A stretch of 64,000 nucleotides of DNA from Candidatus Aerophobetes bacterium Ae_b3b. Lineage in GTDB: Bacteria > Aerophobota > Aerophobia > Aerophobales > AE-B3A. The DNA is taken from positions 2,406-66,405 of the forward strand of contig NJBP01000003.1 in NCBI GenBank assembly GCA_005223085.1. The letters are read 5' to 3'. The translations under genes and the position numbers were made by a program. This document shows, piece after piece, positions 1-6,370 of this stretch (position 1 is its first letter; each line of letters opens with the position of its first letter). Under the pieces are notes generated by a model. That model worked only from the letters and a program-made list of their open reading frames with translations. It did no database searches and was not told where the DNA came from.

Positions 1-1
1 C

Positions 2-1516
2 CTTAAAGTAGAAGTCACGCTGGATCGAGGGATAGTTAAAGAAGCTAGGACCTCGGGTACACTTTTCCGGGGGTTTGAAATAATTCTTAAGGGGAGGGAC
101 CCCAGAGATGCCTCTCAAATAACTCAAAGGGTCTGTGGGGTTTGCCCCATTGCTCATGCCACCGCCTCGGTTTTTGCCCTGGATCAGGCCTTTGGCCTCG
201 AGGACAAAATTCCTTCCAATGCCAGGATCATTCGCAATCTTATCCTGGGTTCCAATTTTCTTCAGTCTAATATTCTCCACTTTTATCATCTGGCTGCCCT
301 TGACTTTGTGGATCTTAATCGTTTGGCCAGATATCAAGGCGAAGATGCCAGGGTGAGGGCACTGAAGGAATTTCTCGCCGGTGGAAATTCTTCTCCTTTC
401 CTTCCCCGGTATGAGGGGGACTACCGCTTGGATGATAGAGTTAATGAAGAGCTTGCTTCTCACTATCTTCTTGCTCTGGAGGTGAGGCGAAAGACCCACG
501 AGATGCTGGCCATTTTTGGAGGGAAAATGCCCCATAATGTGGGTATGGTGGCAGGAGGGGTTACAGAGAAACCCACCGTAGATAAAATCAGCGCCTTCCT
601 GTGGAGGGTGAATGAAATTAGAGAGTTCATCGATAATGTCTATTTTAGCGATGTGATGAGGATAGCGGAGAAATATGGGGACTACCTGGAGATGGGAGCC
701 AGTGGGTATCGTTTTCTCTCCTATGGAGCTTTCAATCTGGATCGACACCCGATTGACCAGACTAAGCGAAGCCGCCTTTATCCACAGGGATTAGCTGATC
801 CTACTCTCAAGCTTACGGATCTGGAACCAGGGAGGATCACTGAGCAGGTGAAGAATAGCTGGTACGAAGATGAAATCACTAATCGACATCCATCCCGTGG
901 AGATACAGTTCCCAGTGAAAATAAATCCGGGGGCTATTCCTGGATAAAAGCTCCTCGTTACGATGGAGAGCCCTGTGAGGTGGGGCCGCTGGCTCGCCTG
1001 GTGGTAGGATACTCCTTGAGTCAACCTCCTGTGCGGGATTTAGTGGAAAAGAGTCTCTCGGGAATGAAGTTGAAATTTCCTAATCTTTTGTCCTGTCTGG
1101 GACGCCATCTGGCTAGGGCTCTGGATACCAAGCTGGTTGCTGACGCTATGGCTGAATGGGTTCTTCAGCTTAAGCCTGGGGAGCCAATATATGTCGCCTA
1201 CGAGCTTCCTGAAGAGGCTGAAGGTATGGGGTTAACCGAAGCACCCCGAGGATCCGTGGGGCACTGGATCAGGATAAAAAGAGGGGTTATTGACAATTAT
1301 CAACTGGTGGTGCCCACCACCTGGAATGCCTCACCCCGAGATGATTCCAATCAGCCCGGTCCTATAGAAAAGGCTCTTACAGGAATCAAGGTAAGAGATA
1401 GTCGAAATCCTCTGGAAGTTGTGCGAATTATCCGTAGTTTCGATCCCTGTCTAGCCTGTGCAGTACATTTTGTTACTCCCAAGGGGAGAGAATTAGAGTG
1501 GTTTAGAATAAGCTAA
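2..1516 (+). CDS. [NiFe]-hydrogenase large (catalytic) subunit, 5'-truncated by the window edge
   Basis: Frame 2 is open from nt 2; the ORF track only starts at internal Met 308. The N-terminal Ni-binding motif RVCGVCPIAH lies at nt 128-157. EAPRGSVGHW and VPTTWNASPRD are present. The C-terminal DPCLACAVH motif lies at nt 1442-1468 and is followed by a 15-aa tail of the type removed by the maturation protease. Confidence 0.9.
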   Translation, partial: LKVEVTLDRGIVKEARTSGTLFRGFEIILKGRDPRDASQITQRVCGVCPIAHATASVFALDQAFGLEDKIPSNARIIRNLILGSNFLQSNILHFYHLAALDFVDLNRLARYQGEDARVRALKEFLAGGNSSPFLPRYEGDYRLDDRVNEELASHYLLALEVRRKTHEMLAIFGGKMPHNVGMVAGGVTEKPTVDKISAFLWRVNEIREFIDNVYFSDVMRIAEKYGDYLEMGASGYRFLSYGAFNLDRHPIDQTKRSRLYPQGLADPTLKLTDLEPGRITEQVKNSWYEDEITNRHPSRGDTVPSENKSGGYSWIKAPRYDGEPCEVGPLARLVVGYSLSQPPVRDLVEKSLSGMKLKFPNLLSCLGRHLARALDTKLVADAMAEWVLQLKPGEPIYVAYELPEEAEGMGLTEAPRGSVGHWIRIKRGVIDNYQLVVPTTWNASPRDDSNQPGPIEKALTGIKVRDSRNPLEVVRIIRSFDPCLACAVHFVTPKGRELEWFRIS

Positions 1517-1628
1517 AGAAGGATGAAAAAGAAGGTTTTCTGAGAATGCTTTTTGAGAGTGGTTGGAAAGAGAATTTTGGGGAACGAAGCCTACAAAAGC
1601 GTAATTGTGGCAGAGAGGAGGCTCAATA

Positions 1629-2336
1629 ATGATTGTTTCAGAGAGAAAGAGCTGGGAAGAAATTCTCTCTTTCCTGGAAGAGGAAAAAAATATTTTTCTC
1701 CTTGTTTGTGGAGGCTGTTCAGAAGCCTGTAAGACAGGAGGTCCGGAGGGATTGAGGGAGGCCAAGGATAGGTTGAGAGAAGCGGGGAAAAAAGTAACCG
1801 CTGCGGTTATCATCGATTTTGTATGTAACAAGGTGCTCCTTGGTATGCGTCTTAACCGATACATCGATGAGCTTAAGTCCTCTGACTCCATTCTTGTCGT
1901 CTCCTGTGGTATCGGGGTTCAGGCAGTGGCTAATATGGTAGATATTCCTGTTCAACCGGCAGATAATACCATACATATGGGGGGATTCCCAGGAGTCTGG
2001 CCGGGTGAGGAAAGATGTCTTCAATGTGGGGATTGCCAGTTGGCTGATACCGGGGGAATTTGTCCTTATGCTGATTGTCCTAAATTTCTGGTTAACGGGG
2101 CCTGTGGAGGTTCTGATAAGGGAAAATGTGAGACTGATCCAGAAAAAGATTGTGTTTGGACTCTCATCTATGAGAGGCTTAAGAATATAGGGAAGCTAGA
2201 AAACTTAAGAAAAATTCGCCCACCCCGGGATTACAATCTTATGCTTGCTCCAGCCGAGAGGAAGAAATCTATGTTCTGGGCACTGGAAACTGTGGAAGAG
2301 AAGCCGAAAGAGGAAGTATCTGTTTCTTCTGAATGA
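1629..2336 (+). CDS. metV: MetV, the Cys-rich partner subunit of acetogen-type methylenetetrahydrofolate reductase (MTHFR C-terminal-domain family)
   Basis: Cys cluster CLQCGDCQLADTGGICPYADCPKFLVNGACGGSDKGKCETDPEKDCVW, plus an N-terminal CGGC region. The ATG at 1629 follows a GGAGG RBS; the TTG at 1605 in the ORF track is less likely. It sits directly upstream of metF. Confidence 0.8.
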   Translation: MIVSERKSWEEILSFLEEEKNIFLLVCGGCSEACKTGGPEGLREAKDRLREAGKKVTAAVIIDFVCNKVLLGMRLNRYIDELKSSDSILVVSCGIGVQAVANMVDIPVQPADNTIHMGGFPGVWPGEERCLQCGDCQLADTGGICPYADCPKFLVNGACGGSDKGKCETDPEKDCVWTLIYERLKNIGKLENLRKIRPPRDYNLMLAPAERKKSMFWALETVEEKPKEEVSVSSE

Positions 2337-2391
2337 GACCTTTGTAAGATTTGCCTGTTGAGGAACCTGAAGAAAGGAGATTATCTACCCC

Positions 2392-3267
2392 ATGAAGCTA
2401 AAAGATCTCTTTGAAAAGGGTAAGTTTGTAGTTACTTCAGAGATTGGACCTCCCAAAGGGACAAATATAGAACCCATGCTGGAGGAGGCGGATCTCCTAA
2501 AGGATAAAGCTGATGCTATCAATGTCACCGAGAATCAGAGTTCGGTGATGCGGCTGGGGTCTATGGCCGTTTGTCGTTTGTTAAAGGAAAGAGGATTTGA
2601 GCCAGTTTTTCAGATAACCTGTCGGGATAGAAACAGATTGGCTCTTCAATCTGATCTTATTTCTGCCTCTGTCCTGGGGATTGAGAATGTCCTTTGTCTC
2701 ACCGGGGATCACGTAGTGCTGGGAGATCATCCTCAGACAAAGTCGGTCTTTGATCTGGATTCTATTCACTTGCTTAAAGTAGCCAGGGGACTAGGTAATG
2801 GTTATGATATGGTGGGGAATAAGCTGGATGGCGTACCAGATCTTTGCCTGGGTGCCGTGGCCAATCCCGGAGCCGATCCCCTGGAACCTCAGATAATCAA
2901 GATGGAAGCTAAGGTGGAAGTCGGAGCAGAGTTTTTTCAGACCCAGGCAGTCTATGAGGTCAAAAAATTTGAAGATTTTATGAAGGCGGCTGGGCACATT
3001 AAGGTCCCCATAATGGTAGGGATAGTTCTATTGAAGTCAGCGGGAATGGCTCGATTTATGAATGCTAATGTGGCGGGAGTCTTCGTTCCCGATAAATTTA
3101 TCAAGATTATGGCAGAAGCTTCCAAGGAGGATCGGCCCAGAAAAAGCATTGAGATTGCTGCCTCTCTTATTAAAGAGATGAAGGGGATGTGCCAGGGAGT
3201 TCATATTATGTCCTTAGGCTGGGATAGATACGTTCCTTCGGTTCTAGAAGCGGCTGAGCTTATCTAA
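2392..3267 (+). CDS. metF: 5,10-methylenetetrahydrofolate reductase
   Basis: 291 aa. MTHFR-family hallmarks are present (VVTSEIGPPKG, INVTENQSS, CLTGDH). AAAGGAG RBS upstream. Confidence 0.85.
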   Translation: MKLKDLFEKGKFVVTSEIGPPKGTNIEPMLEEADLLKDKADAINVTENQSSVMRLGSMAVCRLLKERGFEPVFQITCRDRNRLALQSDLISASVLGIENVLCLTGDHVVLGDHPQTKSVFDLDSIHLLKVARGLGNGYDMVGNKLDGVPDLCLGAVANPGADPLEPQIIKMEAKVEVGAEFFQTQAVYEVKKFEDFMKAAGHIKVPIMVGIVLLKSAGMARFMNANVAGVFVPDKFIKIMAEASKEDRPRKSIEIAASLIKEMKGMCQGVHIMSLGWDRYVPSVLEAAELI

Positions 3268-3281
3268 AAGAATGCCAGGAA

Positions 3282-3359
3282 GTCCATCATTGTCTTGCCT
3301 GCGCTGTGTACACTCTGAATCCCAGGGTAAATAAACTAGGAGAATATCAAATTTTATGA
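3282..3359 (+). pseudogene. Relic 3' end of a second [NiFe]-hydrogenase large-subunit gene (..VHHCLACAVY plus a 15-codon tail)
   Basis: The in-frame translation EVHHCLACAVYTLNPRVNKLGEYQIL* aligns with the true C-terminus DPCLACAVHFVTPKGRELEWFRIS*. CLACAV is identical, and within those codons the nucleotide differences are third-position only. The tail length is the same (15 aa) with P, K/R, L, F/Y and I positions matching. Its TGA overlaps the protease ATG (ATGA at 3356-3359). There is no ORF upstream. Confidence 0.55.
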
Positions 3360-3838
3360 GCAACTACCCAGGTGTTCTCATCTTAGGGGTGGGGAATATG
3401 CTCCTGGGAGATGAAGGGATTGGTGTTCACGTAATTAGAGAGCTGGAGAAAAAAAAGCTTCCCGGCAACATCGAACTTATGGATGCCGGAACTGCTCTGT
3501 TTTCTATCTTGCATTTACTGAAAAAAAGGAAGAAGATAGTTGTTATCGACGCGGCAAGGGGAGGGAAGAAGCCGGGAACCATTTATCGAATTTTACCTTC
3601 TCAGGCTAAAAATGAGTATAATAAACTCCTCTCACTGCATGAGATGGGCCTGATGGAGTGTCTAGCCGAGGTGGAGAATGAAGCAAGACCCCGAGATATC
3701 GTAATTATCGGCATAGAGCCGGACTCAATAGATTGGGGACTTCGACTCTCTTCTAGACTCCAGAAAAAGCTACCAGAAATCGTCAAAGCAGTAATGTCTG
3801 AGATTAGCAAACACAAGATTACACAGATTACCAAATGA
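3356..3838 (+). CDS. Hydrogenase maturation endopeptidase (HyaD/HybD/HycI family)
   Basis: 160 aa. The N-terminal LILGVGNMLLGDEGIGVHV and the later IIGIEP are typical of Ni-hydrogenase C-terminal processing proteases. Confidence 0.85.
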   Translation: MSNYPGVLILGVGNMLLGDEGIGVHVIRELEKKKLPGNIELMDAGTALFSILHLLKKRKKIVVIDAARGGKKPGTIYRILPSQAKNEYNKLLSLHEMGLMECLAEVENEARPRDIVIIGIEPDSIDWGLRLSSRLQKKLPEIVKAVMSEISKHKITQITK

Positions 3839-3964
3839 CGGGAGAACGGTTATATTAGGAGCTCGTATCTTGAAGTATGGGGCAAATAGGGGTAAAAGAT
3901 GATGGCAACTGAACCAAATCCAGTAGAGGAGATTCTGGATAAGCCATAGAAAGGAGGAAGGAGA

Positions 3965-5350
3965 TTGAGCGATACCAGGGTTATAATTGTCGGTGCCGGT
4001 CCGGCCGGGTATGTAGCGGCCATTCGAGCAGCTCAATTGGGTGCCGAAGTTAGCTTGATAGAAGCAGCCCAGGTTGGAGGAACCTGCCTTAATCGGGGTT
4101 GCATTCCTACCAAATCCCTTTTAGCTTCCACGGAAACTCTTTCTCTTATTAGAGGCGCAAAAAAGCTGGGGATTGAAGTAGAGGGGATAAAGCCGGACTT
4201 TACCCGCATGATGGAACGAAAAAATGGGATTGTTTCCCAGCTCAGAAAAGGAGTTGAGTATCTTCTTAAAGCAAACAAGGTGAAATTAGTGAGAGGAAAG
4301 GCAAGCTTTCTTAACCTTCATAGAATCGAGGTTAAAACAAATGAAGGTAAAGAGAAAATCGAAGGCGACTCTACTATTATGGCTACCGGCTCTAAGCCTA
4401 TTCTGCTTCCCTTTATTGACTTCAATCATCCGGCTGTCCTCACCAGTGAGACCACCTTGGAACTTGCGCAAATTCCCCAGAGTCTCCTTATTGTAGGAGC
4501 GGGAGTAATTGGCTGTGAATTTGCTTCTATTTTCGGTCCTCTAGGGACCCAGATCACTATGGTAGAGATGATGGATAGGATTCTTCCCCAGGAAGATAAA
4601 AGAATTAGCCTGATGATGAAACAAATCCTCCAAAAAAGAGGAATAAACATCTTCACTGACACCAGACTAGAAGAGATAACTGATTATGAGAAAGATGGCC
4701 TTACTGCGAGATTGGATAATGGCGAGAGAATTTCCACAGAAAAAATGCTGGTTTGTGTGGGGAGGTCTCCCTACACCGAGGGTCTTGGTCTGGAAAATCT
4801 AGATTTGCGACTTGATCAAAAAGGAAATATCACAGTTAATGAAAGGATGCAGACAAGTGAGGGGAGGGTTTATGCCATTGGTGATGTGGTGGGAGGATAT
4901 CTTTTAGCTCACGTAGCCTTTGAGGAAGGGATTGTAGCGGCCGAGAACGCTCTGGGGCTTGATTCTAAAATTAATTACACCAGTATCCCAAACTGTATCT
5001 TTACTTCTCCTCAGATTGGTACAGTAGGACTTACTCTCGATAAGGCCAGGGAAGAAGGAATTGAAACTAAGATTGGCAGATTCCCTTTTTCCGCCTCCGG
5101 TAAAGCTCAGGCTCTGAGTGAGATAGATGGCTTTGTGCAACTGGTCGTGGAGGAAGAAGATGGTAGGATTCTCGGCGGGCAGATCATAGGGCCTCATGCA
5201 GCCGATCTCGTACATGAAATTTCTCTGGCCATTAGATGGGAATTAACAGTTGATGAGATAGGTAGTACCGTTCATGCTCATCCTACCCTTTCCGAGGCTA
5301 TAATGGAAGCAGCCAAAAAAGCCCAGGGGAAACCGATTCATTTAACCTAA
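3965..5350 (+). CDS. lpdA: Dihydrolipoyl dehydrogenase (pyridine nucleotide-disulfide oxidoreductase class I)
   Basis: GAGPAGY FAD-binding motif, redox disulfide GGTCLNRGCIPTK, second dinucleotide fold VGAGVIGCEF, and C-terminal HAHPTLSE. TTG start behind AAAGGAGGAAGGAG. No E1/E2 genes are adjacent. Confidence 0.9.
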   Translation: MSDTRVIIVGAGPAGYVAAIRAAQLGAEVSLIEAAQVGGTCLNRGCIPTKSLLASTETLSLIRGAKKLGIEVEGIKPDFTRMMERKNGIVSQLRKGVEYLLKANKVKLVRGKASFLNLHRIEVKTNEGKEKIEGDSTIMATGSKPILLPFIDFNHPAVLTSETTLELAQIPQSLLIVGAGVIGCEFASIFGPLGTQITMVEMMDRILPQEDKRISLMMKQILQKRGINIFTDTRLEEITDYEKDGLTARLDNGERISTEKMLVCVGRSPYTEGLGLENLDLRLDQKGNITVNERMQTSEGRVYAIGDVVGGYLLAHVAFEEGIVAAENALGLDSKINYTSIPNCIFTSPQIGTVGLTLDKAREEGIETKIGRFPFSASGKAQALSEIDGFVQLVVEEEDGRILGGQIIGPHAADLVHEISLAIRWELTVDEIGSTVHAHPTLSEAIMEAAKKAQGKPIHLT

Positions 5351-5371: not shown

Positions 5372-6370
5372 ATGCTTATTCTGGGAATAGAGACGTCCTG
5401 TGATGAGACAGCCGCCGCCGTGGTGGAAAATGGAAAAAAGATACTCTCCAATGTGGTAGCCTCTCAGGTTGATCTACATCGAAAATTCTGGGGGATAGTC
5501 CCTGAAATAGCCTCAAGGAAGCATCTGGAACTTATCATTCCCATTATAAAAGAATCTCTAGGCGAAGCCCGCATAAAGCTGAAAGATCTAGATGCTGTTG
5601 CCGCTACCTATGGACCAGGCCTGTTGGGATCACTTCTGGTAGGGTTAATTGTGGCCAAGGGGCTAGCTTACGCACTTGAGCTACCCTTTATCGGCATCAA
5701 TCACCTGGAAGCTCACTTTTATGCTAATTTCCTTAGCTATCCGGAAATTGTCCTTCCTTTAGTAGGTTTGATTATATCTGGCGGTCATACTGAACTCATC
5801 TATTTATCAAAGGAAAGAGAATATGAGATATTGGGTACCACCAGAGATGATGCCGTGGGAGAAGCGTTTGATAAGGTAGCCAGGATCCTTGATTTAGGAT
5901 ACCCAGGAGGCCCTGTCATTGAAAAAATGGCTGAAAAAGGAAACCCTCAATCCATAAAGCTACCTTTGACTCATTTCAAAAACAATAGCTTGGACTTTAG
6001 CTTCAGCGGAATAAAGACAGCCGTGCTCTATTATGTTAAAGATCTAGAAAGGAAAAAAGCTCCTGTTTCCACTGCCGATATTGCCGCCAGCTTTCAGCTC
6101 AAGATAGCTCAAATGCTCAGCAAAAATCTCTTTAAGGTGGCCTGTCTAAAAAAAGTAAAACAAATTATTTTGGGAGGAGGAGTATCAGCCAATCTTTTCC
6201 TTCGCTCATTTCTGGAAAAAGAAAAGCCCGATCACATAAAGATTTTCTTTCCTCCCTTAGAACTCTGTACCGATAACGCCGCTATGGTGGCTGCCTGCGC
6301 CTATCCCAAAGTTAAGCAGGGCAAAAGTTCCCCCCTTTCTCTCGATGCTCAACCTAACTTAGGCTTTTGA
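5372..6370 (+). CDS. tsaD: tRNA N6-adenosine threonylcarbamoyltransferase (Kae1/TsaD)
   Basis: ILGIETSCDETAAAVV at the N-terminus, GINHLEAH, and GGGVSAN. 332 aa. Confidence 0.9.
   Translation: MLILGIETSCDETAAAVVENGKKILSNVVASQVDLHRKFWGIVPEIASRKHLELIIPIIKESLGEARIKLKDLDAVAATYGPGLLGSLLVGLIVAKGLAYALELPFIGINHLEAHFYANFLSYPEIVLPLVGLIISGGHTELIYLSKEREYEILGTTRDDAVGEAFDKVARILDLGYPGGPVIEKMAEKGNPQSIKLPLTHFKNNSLDFSFSGIKTAVLYYVKDLERKKAPVSTADIAASFQLKIAQMLSKNLFKVACLKKVKQIILGGGVSANLFLRSFLEKEKPDHIKIFFPPLELCTDNAAMVAACAYPKVKQGKSSPLSLDAQPNLGF

Follow-up and report, generated by a model that had tools for sequence, protein, structure and literature searches.

Methylene-tetrahydrofolate (methylene-THF) reductases (MTHFRs) of acetogenic bacteria fall into four types, MetF alone, MetVF, RnfC2-MetVF and HdrABC-MvhD-MetVF, and which electron donor serves the MetVF type physiologically is an acknowledged open question (PMC8760232). 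In Sporomusa ovata, H2-dependent methylene-THF reduction proceeds through hydrogenases that are exported by the twin-arginine translocation (Tat) pathway and linked to cytochrome b, and through quinone (PMC9430772). We analysed a 64,000-nucleotide stretch (the window; C29:2406-66405) of the 2.04-Mb, 86-contig assembly of an uncultured marine-sediment bacterium (genome G000), at the start of which genes for a [NiFe] hydrogenase (HydS and HydL), both MTHFR subunits (MetV and MetF) and a hydrogenase maturation protease lie together. We consider it moderately likely that this unit encodes a soluble, cytoplasmic H2:methylene-THF oxidoreductase, in which H2 would probably feed the methylene-THF reduction step directly.

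As in the type II MetVF enzymes of Clostridium ljungdahlii, C. formicoaceticum, Thermoanaerobacter kivui and Eubacterium callanderi (PMC8760232), metV and metF form an adjacent PF12225 and PF02219 pair, here 55 bp apart, and lpdA adjoins metVF as it does in C. ljungdahlii (PMC8760232). The type II enzymes stand alone, with ferredoxin working only in vitro (PMC8760232), whereas the present operon also encodes a dedicated hydrogenase; hydS and hydL directly precede metV, so that metVF does not lack an electron-input subunit as it does in type II. Genes were called from open reading frame (ORF) translations and family-profile scans, and the full set lies on the + strand. The order hydL, metV, metF, maturation protease, lpdA and then tsaD, all on that strand, was confirmed, with successive gaps of 112 (or 88, if metV starts at an alternative TTG), 55, 88 and 126 bp, in agreement with the order, strand and 55-126 bp gaps given in a first-pass annotation of this DNA. 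That annotation had also seen no hairpin terminator between the genes, and a consensus scan placed no terminator-like site in the intergenic gaps: those on the + strand all fall within ORFs, and the total of 10 sites compares with 9.0 expected by chance. The features are listed here in window coordinates, or in contig coordinates where C29 is given:

<1..1516, + strand: hydL, [NiFe]-hydrogenase large subunit, of which the 3' 1,516 nt are in the window (PF00374 500 bits; NF033181 651 bits)
C29:2362-3921, + strand: hydL, full gene, 519 aa
1535..1615, no strand: genome-specific 81-nt segment in the hydL-metV spacer
1629..2336, + strand: metV, iron-sulfur (FeS)/Zn subunit of methylene-THF reductase, 235 aa from ATG (PF12225 109 bits)
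2392..3267, + strand: metF, catalytic flavoprotein subunit of methylene-THF reductase, 291 aa (PF02219 127 bits)
3285..3359, + strand: remnant of the hydL 3' end, which reads HHCLACAVYTLNPRVNKLGEYQIL followed by a stop
3356..3838, + strand: HyaD/HybD-type hydrogenase maturation endopeptidase, 160 aa (TIGR00072 139 bits, PF01750 91 bits)
3839..3964, no strand: protease-lpdA gap, which contains a synteny breakpoint
3965..5350, + strand: lpdA, dihydrolipoyl dehydrogenase, 461 aa, TTG start behind an AGGAGG site (TIGR01350 570 bits)
5372..6370, + strand: tsaD (tRNA t6A synthesis), 22 bp past lpdA, a housekeeping anchor of the backbone (TIGR03723 420 bits)
C29:538-936 and C29:1004-1393: two receiver-only (CheY-like) response regulators directly 5' of hydS
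C29:3-452: C-terminal fragment of TnpB (IS200/IS605-type, Cas12f-like TNB domain) at the contig start, adjoining the cassette

The 5' part of the unit lies outside the window (C29:538-2405), and the whole unit reads response regulator, response regulator, hydS, hydL, metV, metF, protease. By extending the sequence upstream, as the first-pass annotation had proposed for finding the small subunit, we identified hydS on the same strand as hydL; it encodes 290 aa with Oxidored_q6 and NiFe_hyd_SSU_C domains. The metV ATG at 1629 is preceded by a GAGGAGG ribosome-binding site, the alternative start being the TTG at 1605, which agrees with the gap implied in the first-pass annotation, and MetF is 80% identical in family f6 and 65% identical in family f5 of the order. 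The 81-nt spacer segment is absent from the same-genus genome G003 (a gap in blastn) and is skipped by contigs of the sequencing runs X27 and X26 (joint 1534->1616); its sequence is unique in the genome, and we rejected the possibility that it is a repeat or a mobile element.

We then considered what kind of hydrogenase the unit encodes. The large-subunit motifs quoted in the first-pass annotation (EAPRG..HW, VPTTWN..PRD and DPCLACAVH) are all present in the HydL translation. HydL carries the L1 and L2 motifs QRVCGVCPIAH and DPCLACAVH that are expected of group 1a, its Ni-Fe ligand cysteines lie in RVCGVC and DPCLACAVH, and C60, C63, C498, C501 and H504 are invariant in our alignment (A1). NF033181 matched at 651 bits against a cut-off of 600, and the closest solved structures are group 1a periplasmic [NiFeSe]/[NiFe] enzymes (5jsu_B 465 bits, 1cc1_L 433 bits, also 4kl8_L). 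For both subunits the best match is the Hys-type of group 1a from Desulfovibrio vulgaris Hildenborough and Desulfomicrobium baculatum (5jsu, 1cc1, 4kl8), with which they share the Ni-Fe ligand motifs, three FeS clusters in HydS, the distal one with a His-ligated motif (HENC), a large subunit extended at its C-terminus and a HyaD/HybD-type protease. A HydDB run on a Bipolaricaulia homologue likewise returned 'group 1a' (PMC11287216). The present enzyme differs from the Hys-type in lacking a Tat leader, in the cysteine of DPCLAC and in having no cytochrome c3 or b partner gene, with linkage to MetVF instead; at the position of the fourth medial-cluster ligand, HydS has Val and 1cc1 has Cys. The [NiFeSe] subtype was excluded, as the last motif, DPCLAC, has a TGT codon for cysteine and no selenocysteine, and the NF045518 HysA model scored 535 bits, under its cut-off of 780.

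The cell location of the enzyme bears on whether coupling to MetVF can be direct, and the first-pass annotation had cautioned that a periplasmic enzyme could be coupled only indirectly. HydS begins with METKRQPVIWLQ (its beginning is also given as METKRQPVIWLQGAGCTGCS), 8 residues ahead of the conserved PVIWLQ motif. The in-frame stop upstream is just 10 codons away from this start, and residue 3 aligns to residue 5 of the mature, signal-cleaved small subunit of 1cc1 (the D. baculatum [NiFeSe] enzyme). The N-terminus, the upstream frame and the 1cc1 alignment thus reveal neither a Tat leader nor space for one. Around hydSL there is no cytochrome gene (c3 or b), the neighbours being the two receiver proteins, metV, metF and the protease. 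We therefore rejected a periplasmic uptake enzyme, and the caveat does not hold for this locus. Because HydS lacks a Tat leader, the hydrogenase is predicted to be cytoplasmic, a relative or offshoot of the group 1a [NiFe] hydrogenases that works inside the cell. HydL ends in a 15-residue extension after His504, FVTPKGRELEWFRIS, which explains the need for a maturation protease. This tail is the expected substrate of the operon protease, a HyaD/HybD-type endopeptidase (TIGR00072 cut-off 47 bits) that is the only one of its type found in the assembly and is expected to mature HydL.

A second Tat-less HydSL pair, 35% identical, is encoded elsewhere in the genome, ahead of a PAS histidine kinase and three response regulators (G000 C2:9004-16339, - strand). 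This pair may sense H2 and thereby control the hydSL-metVF operon; its large subunit retains the C-terminal extension, unlike classical sensory hydrogenases. The genome also encodes group 3-like and group 4-like hydrogenases.

The linkage of this hydrogenase with MetVF recurs in relatives, within the order and across phyla, a check that the first-pass annotation had called for. In all 12 relatives from the order that have the window-type MetV, HydS, HydL, MetV and MetF are contiguous and on one strand; these relatives span three families, with HydL identity falling to 51%. This MetV was found in the order exclusively beside HydSL, and metV always follows hydL in the 12 relatives. Four loci with more distant HydL homologues (58-65% identity) were looked up in public assemblies: a Dehalococcoidia locus (RACo-CooC-AcsD-AcsE-Fhs-FolD-HydS-HydL-HycI-MetV-MetF-NuoE-NuoF-Fdh), an unlabelled 273-kb metagenome contig (CODH/ACS genes, for carbon monoxide dehydrogenase/acetyl-CoA synthase, then HydS-HydL-HycI-MetV-MetF), an Elusimicrobia locus (Fhs-HydS-HydL-HycI-MetV-MetF) and a locus of an Aerophobetes metagenome-assembled genome (MAG; HydS-HydL-MetV-MetF). 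The module stands amid CODH/ACS genes in two of the four (L025 and L026), and other Wood-Ljungdahl genes such as fhs accompany it in L025-L027.

A scan of species-representative genomes returned at least 577 stretches encoding a HydL relative. We analysed the best 80 of these at least 577 loci (56-91% identity), of which 68 had enough downstream sequence to judge, and in 67 of the 68 informative loci MetVF was linked to HydSL, so that linkage is near-universal in the clade. The arrangements were as follows:

MetV first or second gene after HydL: 58 loci, with the protease intervening in 43
MetV-HydS-HydL-MetF, with the hydrogenase genes inside the metV/metF pair: 8 loci, in Anaerolineae/Chloroflexota MAGs
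Variant of the MetV-HydS-HydL-MetF order: 1 locus
No MetVF: 1 locus (L059)

The loci carry about ten phylum-level labels, including Aerophobetes, Anaerolineae, Dehalococcoidia, Elusimicrobia, Spirochaetota, 'delta proteobacterium'/Desulfobacteraceae, Bipolaricaulia, Fraserbacteria, Poribacteria, Thermotogae and an actinobacterium, with Chloroflexota also cited, and Wood-Ljungdahl genes flank the module in 20 of the 80. In a quick maximum-likelihood tree of HydL all of these loci formed one clade, the branching of which did not follow taxonomy, suggesting that the cassette was transferred as a unit. The hydrogenase is paired with the MetVF type of the window in 48 loci and with a second type (that of a fusion protein encoded on contig C33 of the genome) in 23-27; the pairing therefore survives exchange of the reductase, and we rejected the idea that one MetVF subfamily is specialised for the hydrogenase. 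Being kept across the order and across phyla, the gene arrangement is, from these comparisons, far beyond chance. A true Tat leader on HydS (SRREFLKF, TRRDFLKL) was seen only in L059 and in L053, the latter a short contig that carries no MetVF; it was absent from the 74 other HydS N-termini examined, and every MetVF-linked HydS starts about 10 residues or fewer before PVIWLQ. The large subunits of these two Anaerolineales MAGs are 61% identical to the query and have MetVF-linked Chloroflexota members as tree neighbours, which indicates that export status switched inside a close-knit clade.

Linkage of this kind could also arise from joint expression of enzymes that do not form a complex, with HydSL as a soluble uptake hydrogenase that reduces a ferredoxin- or flavodoxin-type carrier used by MetVF and the genes held together for expression under H2. 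Homologous pairs of receiver-only response regulators stand beside the module in 21 of the 80 loci, in other phyla, and an Anaerolineales locus has a sensor histidine kinase between hydL and metF (L047:8617-10512), both of which suggest regulated expression. NuoE/NuoF-like genes at some Dehalococcoidia loci and the acceptance of reduced ferredoxin by type II MetVF enzymes in vitro (PMC8760232) point the same way. We nevertheless consider co-regulation through a carrier unlikely, as hydS and hydL lie inside the metV/metF pair in 8 loci, an order typical of the subunits of one enzyme, and the linkage outlasts both exchange of the MetVF lineage and transfer between phyla. Moreover, the conserved genes of the cassette include none for ferredoxin, and at the concentrations found in sediment H2 reduces low-potential ferredoxin poorly.

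To look at transcription across the junctions, which the first-pass annotation had proposed, we used two metatranscriptome-labelled runs (X27 and X28) that contain relatives of the locus and aligned their assembled contigs with the window. A 752-nt contig of X27, about 96% identical, runs from hydL through the spacer into metV, and the metV-metF junction is spanned by contigs of both runs; RNA-derived contigs thus bridge these two junctions. Runs X25 and X26, which are labelled 'METAGENOMIC RNA-Seq' and have a flat depth of about 5x, may be DNA and were set aside as transcript evidence.

In the H2:methylene-THF oxidoreductase that we propose, HydL would oxidise H2 at its Ni-Fe site, and electrons would pass through Tat-less HydS, by way of its three FeS clusters, to those of MetV and from there to the flavin of MetF, which would reduce methylene-THF to methyl-THF. 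We infer both the physical complex of the four proteins and the direction of electron flow. The E0' values are about -414 mV for H2 and -200 mV for methylene-THF, and the reaction would be exergonic by about 41 kJ/mol. The first-pass annotation had suggested an H2-linked route of methylene-THF reduction with LpdA as a possible electron-transfer partner. The H2-linked half of that proposal is well supported by comparative genomics: we found no Tat leader and no cytochrome b gene, the synteny recurs and RNA-derived contigs cross two junctions. The half concerning LpdA is not, for reasons given below.

The same module run in reverse would oxidise methyl-THF, in demethylation or acetate oxidation, and vent H2 at very low H2 pressure. 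An anoxic-sediment habitat, in which syntrophy is common, would favour such a role, as would the Pterin_bind and URO-D methyltransferase-type genes that adjoin the third MetF of the genome; these genes, however, adjoin a different MetF and not that of the cassette. We regard the reverse direction as highly improbable, given that electron transfer from methyl-THF (-200 mV) to protons (-414 mV) is strongly endergonic, that the cassette has no energy-input module and that the closest characterised hydrogenases are uptake enzymes.

Several observations weigh against a dedicated oxidoreductase. The complex is deduced from gene data of uncultured MAGs in every carrier, and gene linkage is equally compatible with co-regulation via a soluble carrier. 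Contigs of the runs clearly labelled RNA span neither the metF-protease nor the protease-lpdA junction, and those that do cross junctions are assemblies from ~96%-identical relatives into which DNA may have been carried over, making them support rather than proof. Plain transfer from H2 to methylene-THF would waste about 41 kJ/mol, an odd loss for sediment organisms limited by energy. This energy would be recovered if HydSL-MetVF were a fifth MTHFR type, a four-subunit soluble H2-using complex that bifurcates electrons to ferredoxin; by analogy with MvhADG-HdrABC, methylene-THF reduction would be coupled to ferredoxin reduction and ~41 kJ/mol regained. Such bifurcation is in our view quite unlikely; if true, it would settle the debate over the donor and the energetics of MetVF for a broad set of uncultured Wood-Ljungdahl organisms. 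Finally, acetyl-CoA synthase was not found in some genomes with the cassette (G018 and G007), and the module is not strictly a Wood-Ljungdahl enzyme.

Together with the presence of acetyl-CoA synthase in relatives without the cassette, this last point makes the module, as far as gene content can tell, an accessory H2-linked isoenzyme that is not obligatory for the Wood-Ljungdahl pathway. The genome itself encodes acetyl-CoA synthase (C69), Fhs and FolD (both C62) and three copies of MetF: that of the window, the C33 fusion beside GcvH and a MetF on C15. The third, on C15, has no MetV and lies beside a pterin-binding methyltransferase and a URO-D-family protein (G000 C15:17591-20789), which suggests a methyl-transfer (demethylation) route into the folate pool there.

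We next asked whether lpdA belongs to the unit. The lpdA-tsaD block, often followed by PHP-ctp, is kept in families f1, f3, f5 and f7 with or without the cassette. In G001, a genome of the same genus with an LpdA 90% identical, the 5 kb upstream of lpdA hold unrelated genes, and homology to the window contig starts at 3928, which is 37 bp before lpdA and inside the 126-bp gap; the match of an X27 lpdA contig begins at exactly 3928 as well. A promoter-like site, TTACCA-17-TATATT (3828-3856), lies over the protease stop codon and reaches into the gap. Outside the order, LpdA is near the module in only 1 of the 80 loci. On this synteny we rejected LpdA as a core member of the module, of which it appears to be a neighbour by chromosomal position. 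The module would comprise hydS, hydL, metV, metF and the protease, probably also the two receiver proteins, and neither lpdA nor tsaD. The TnpB fragment and the G001 indel suggest a variable spot upstream of lpdA. Where the cassette would stand, G001 carries genes for a 770-aa SNF2-family helicase, a 378-aa zinc-ribbon protein and a PIN-domain protein (L120, G001:C10, 7304-11768), which may constitute a defence or toxin-antitoxin island.

What LpdA does instead is suggested by glycine cleavage. LpdA scores 570 bits with TIGR01350 (cut-off 409), has the redox-active CxxxxC in GGTCLNRGCIPTK and the C-terminal HAHPTLSE (HxxxxE), and is the only strong dihydrolipoyl dehydrogenase in the assembly. 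A glycine-cleavage operon on C55 encodes an aminotransferase, a 1,260-aa SHMT-GcvT-GcvT fusion, a transketolase-like protein, GcvH, GcvPA, GcvPB and LplA, and contains no L-protein gene. From these two findings LpdA is most likely the L-protein of the C55 system, which makes the methylene-THF that MetVF consumes. Counting against this assignment, LpdA orthologues are kept in genomes in which GcvP/T were not found (G016, G018, G019 and G025), some of them also without GcvH; the L-protein role can therefore not be the sole function of LpdA, and a purely glycine-cleavage role is weakened. The SHMT-GcvT-GcvT fusion (G000 C55:5754-9536, - strand) has similarly long frames in G003, G020, G015 and G024.

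The retention of LpdA in genomes without GcvP is compatible with a role beside MetVF, in which electrons would pass from NADH through LpdA to lipoyl-GcvH and on to MetVF, or LpdA would serve as a second donor or acceptor, as considered for clostridial clusters. MetVF and LpdA are adjacent in family f5 (G018 and G023), in the actinobacterial MAG L099 and in C. ljungdahlii (PMC8760232), and G007 has a paralogous arrangement, MetV2-MetF2, two response regulators and LpdA'. The genome further encodes a fused MetV-MetF of 551 aa with a second GcvH 60 nt later (G000 C33:4778-6892). This fusion and its GcvH are kept in the order (G003, G002, G019, G023, G024, G025 and G028) even where GcvP/GcvT were not found, which suggests that the second GcvH is tied to MetVF rather than to glycine cleavage. 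We find a partnership of LpdA with the module very doubtful all the same, given the lpdA-tsaD block without the cassette, the breakpoint in the protease-lpdA gap and the single locus outside the order. A donor model with LpdA and GcvH was judged 'highly unlikely' by the authors of the clostridial analysis (PMC8760232), and in S. ovata dihydrolipoate gave no stimulation of H2-dependent methylene-THF reduction (PMC9430772).

The first-pass annotation had emphasised that metVF sits between hydL and the protease gene. This order is real, but it appears to be a secondary, lineage-specific rearrangement rather than intrinsic to the module. Elsewhere, including family f5 of the order, the usual order is HydS-HydL-protease-MetV-MetF; in family f6 the protease gene immediately precedes tsaD, and HydSL-MetVF is on other contigs. 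The 88-bp gap between metF and the protease gene holds the remnant frame, which consists of CLACAV and a 16-codon tail, contains a GTG codon and ends in a TGA that overlaps the protease ATG (ATGA). It matches the true hydL tail at 38 of 69 nt, the best among 127,864 ungapped windows, and, hydL itself apart, it has the sole CLACAV that six-frame translation of the 2.04-Mb assembly yields. In the same genus, the remnant of G003 reads CLACAVH with the same tail, the cleavage-site His being intact, and the remnant has been lost from G002; in f6, none was found ahead of the unlinked protease genes. Read most simply, these data point to an ancestral order of HydS-HydL-protease-MetV-MetF-LpdA-TsaD, with metVF having moved ahead of the protease in this genus, for example via a tandem duplication from inside the hydL 3' end followed by reciprocal losses. 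The hydL-tail scar, still coupled to the protease gene, would be the leftover of this rearrangement.

How the locus stands among described systems can be set out as follows. In the literature on hydrogenase-MetVF pairing or H2-dependent methylene-THF reduction we found only Hdr/MvhD-type or membrane-bound systems, with one exception: a single sentence of 2024 notes HysAB-MetVF adjacency in two Ca. Bipolaricaulia operational taxonomic units among MAGs from Great Salt Lake (PMC11287216). It describes the same module (a Bipolaricaulia locus, L098, is among our 80) and makes the same suggestion, that the hydrogenase supplies electrons to methylene-THF reduction; it mentions neither that the Tat signal is missing nor how widely the module is spread among phyla, and it reports no nested gene orders and no experiment. 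New from this window, as read from its sequence, are the rearranged position of the protease gene, with the hydL-tail scar ahead of it, and the clean split from the lpdA-tsaD backbone. With the type IV enzymes of Moorella thermoacetica and the marine Chloroflexi DscP3 (HdrABC-MvhD-MetVF; PMC5736913), the module shares a MetVF fed by an added input module. We found no hdrA/B/C or mvhD in the cassette and its flanking sequence, to which the search for Hdr was confined, and in contrast to type IV and S. ovata, genes for Hdr, MvhD, quinone or cytochrome are absent from the cassette. S. ovata, too, draws its electrons ultimately from H2, but its hydrogenases are Tat-exported and anchored by cytochrome b (PMC9430772), whereas here the hydrogenase is predicted to be cytoplasmic and the genes are adjacent. 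A hydrogenase encoded with MetVF in hundreds of uncultured sediment and subsurface species offers a concrete, testable answer to the donor question, namely H2 itself. That a lineage classed as 'periplasmic uptake' group 1a may work inside the cell is relevant to metagenome surveys in which physiology is inferred from HydDB classes. The module would thereby contribute a cytoplasmic branch to the group 1a hydrogenases, and its HydSL input module would define a fifth type of MTHFR beside the four known.

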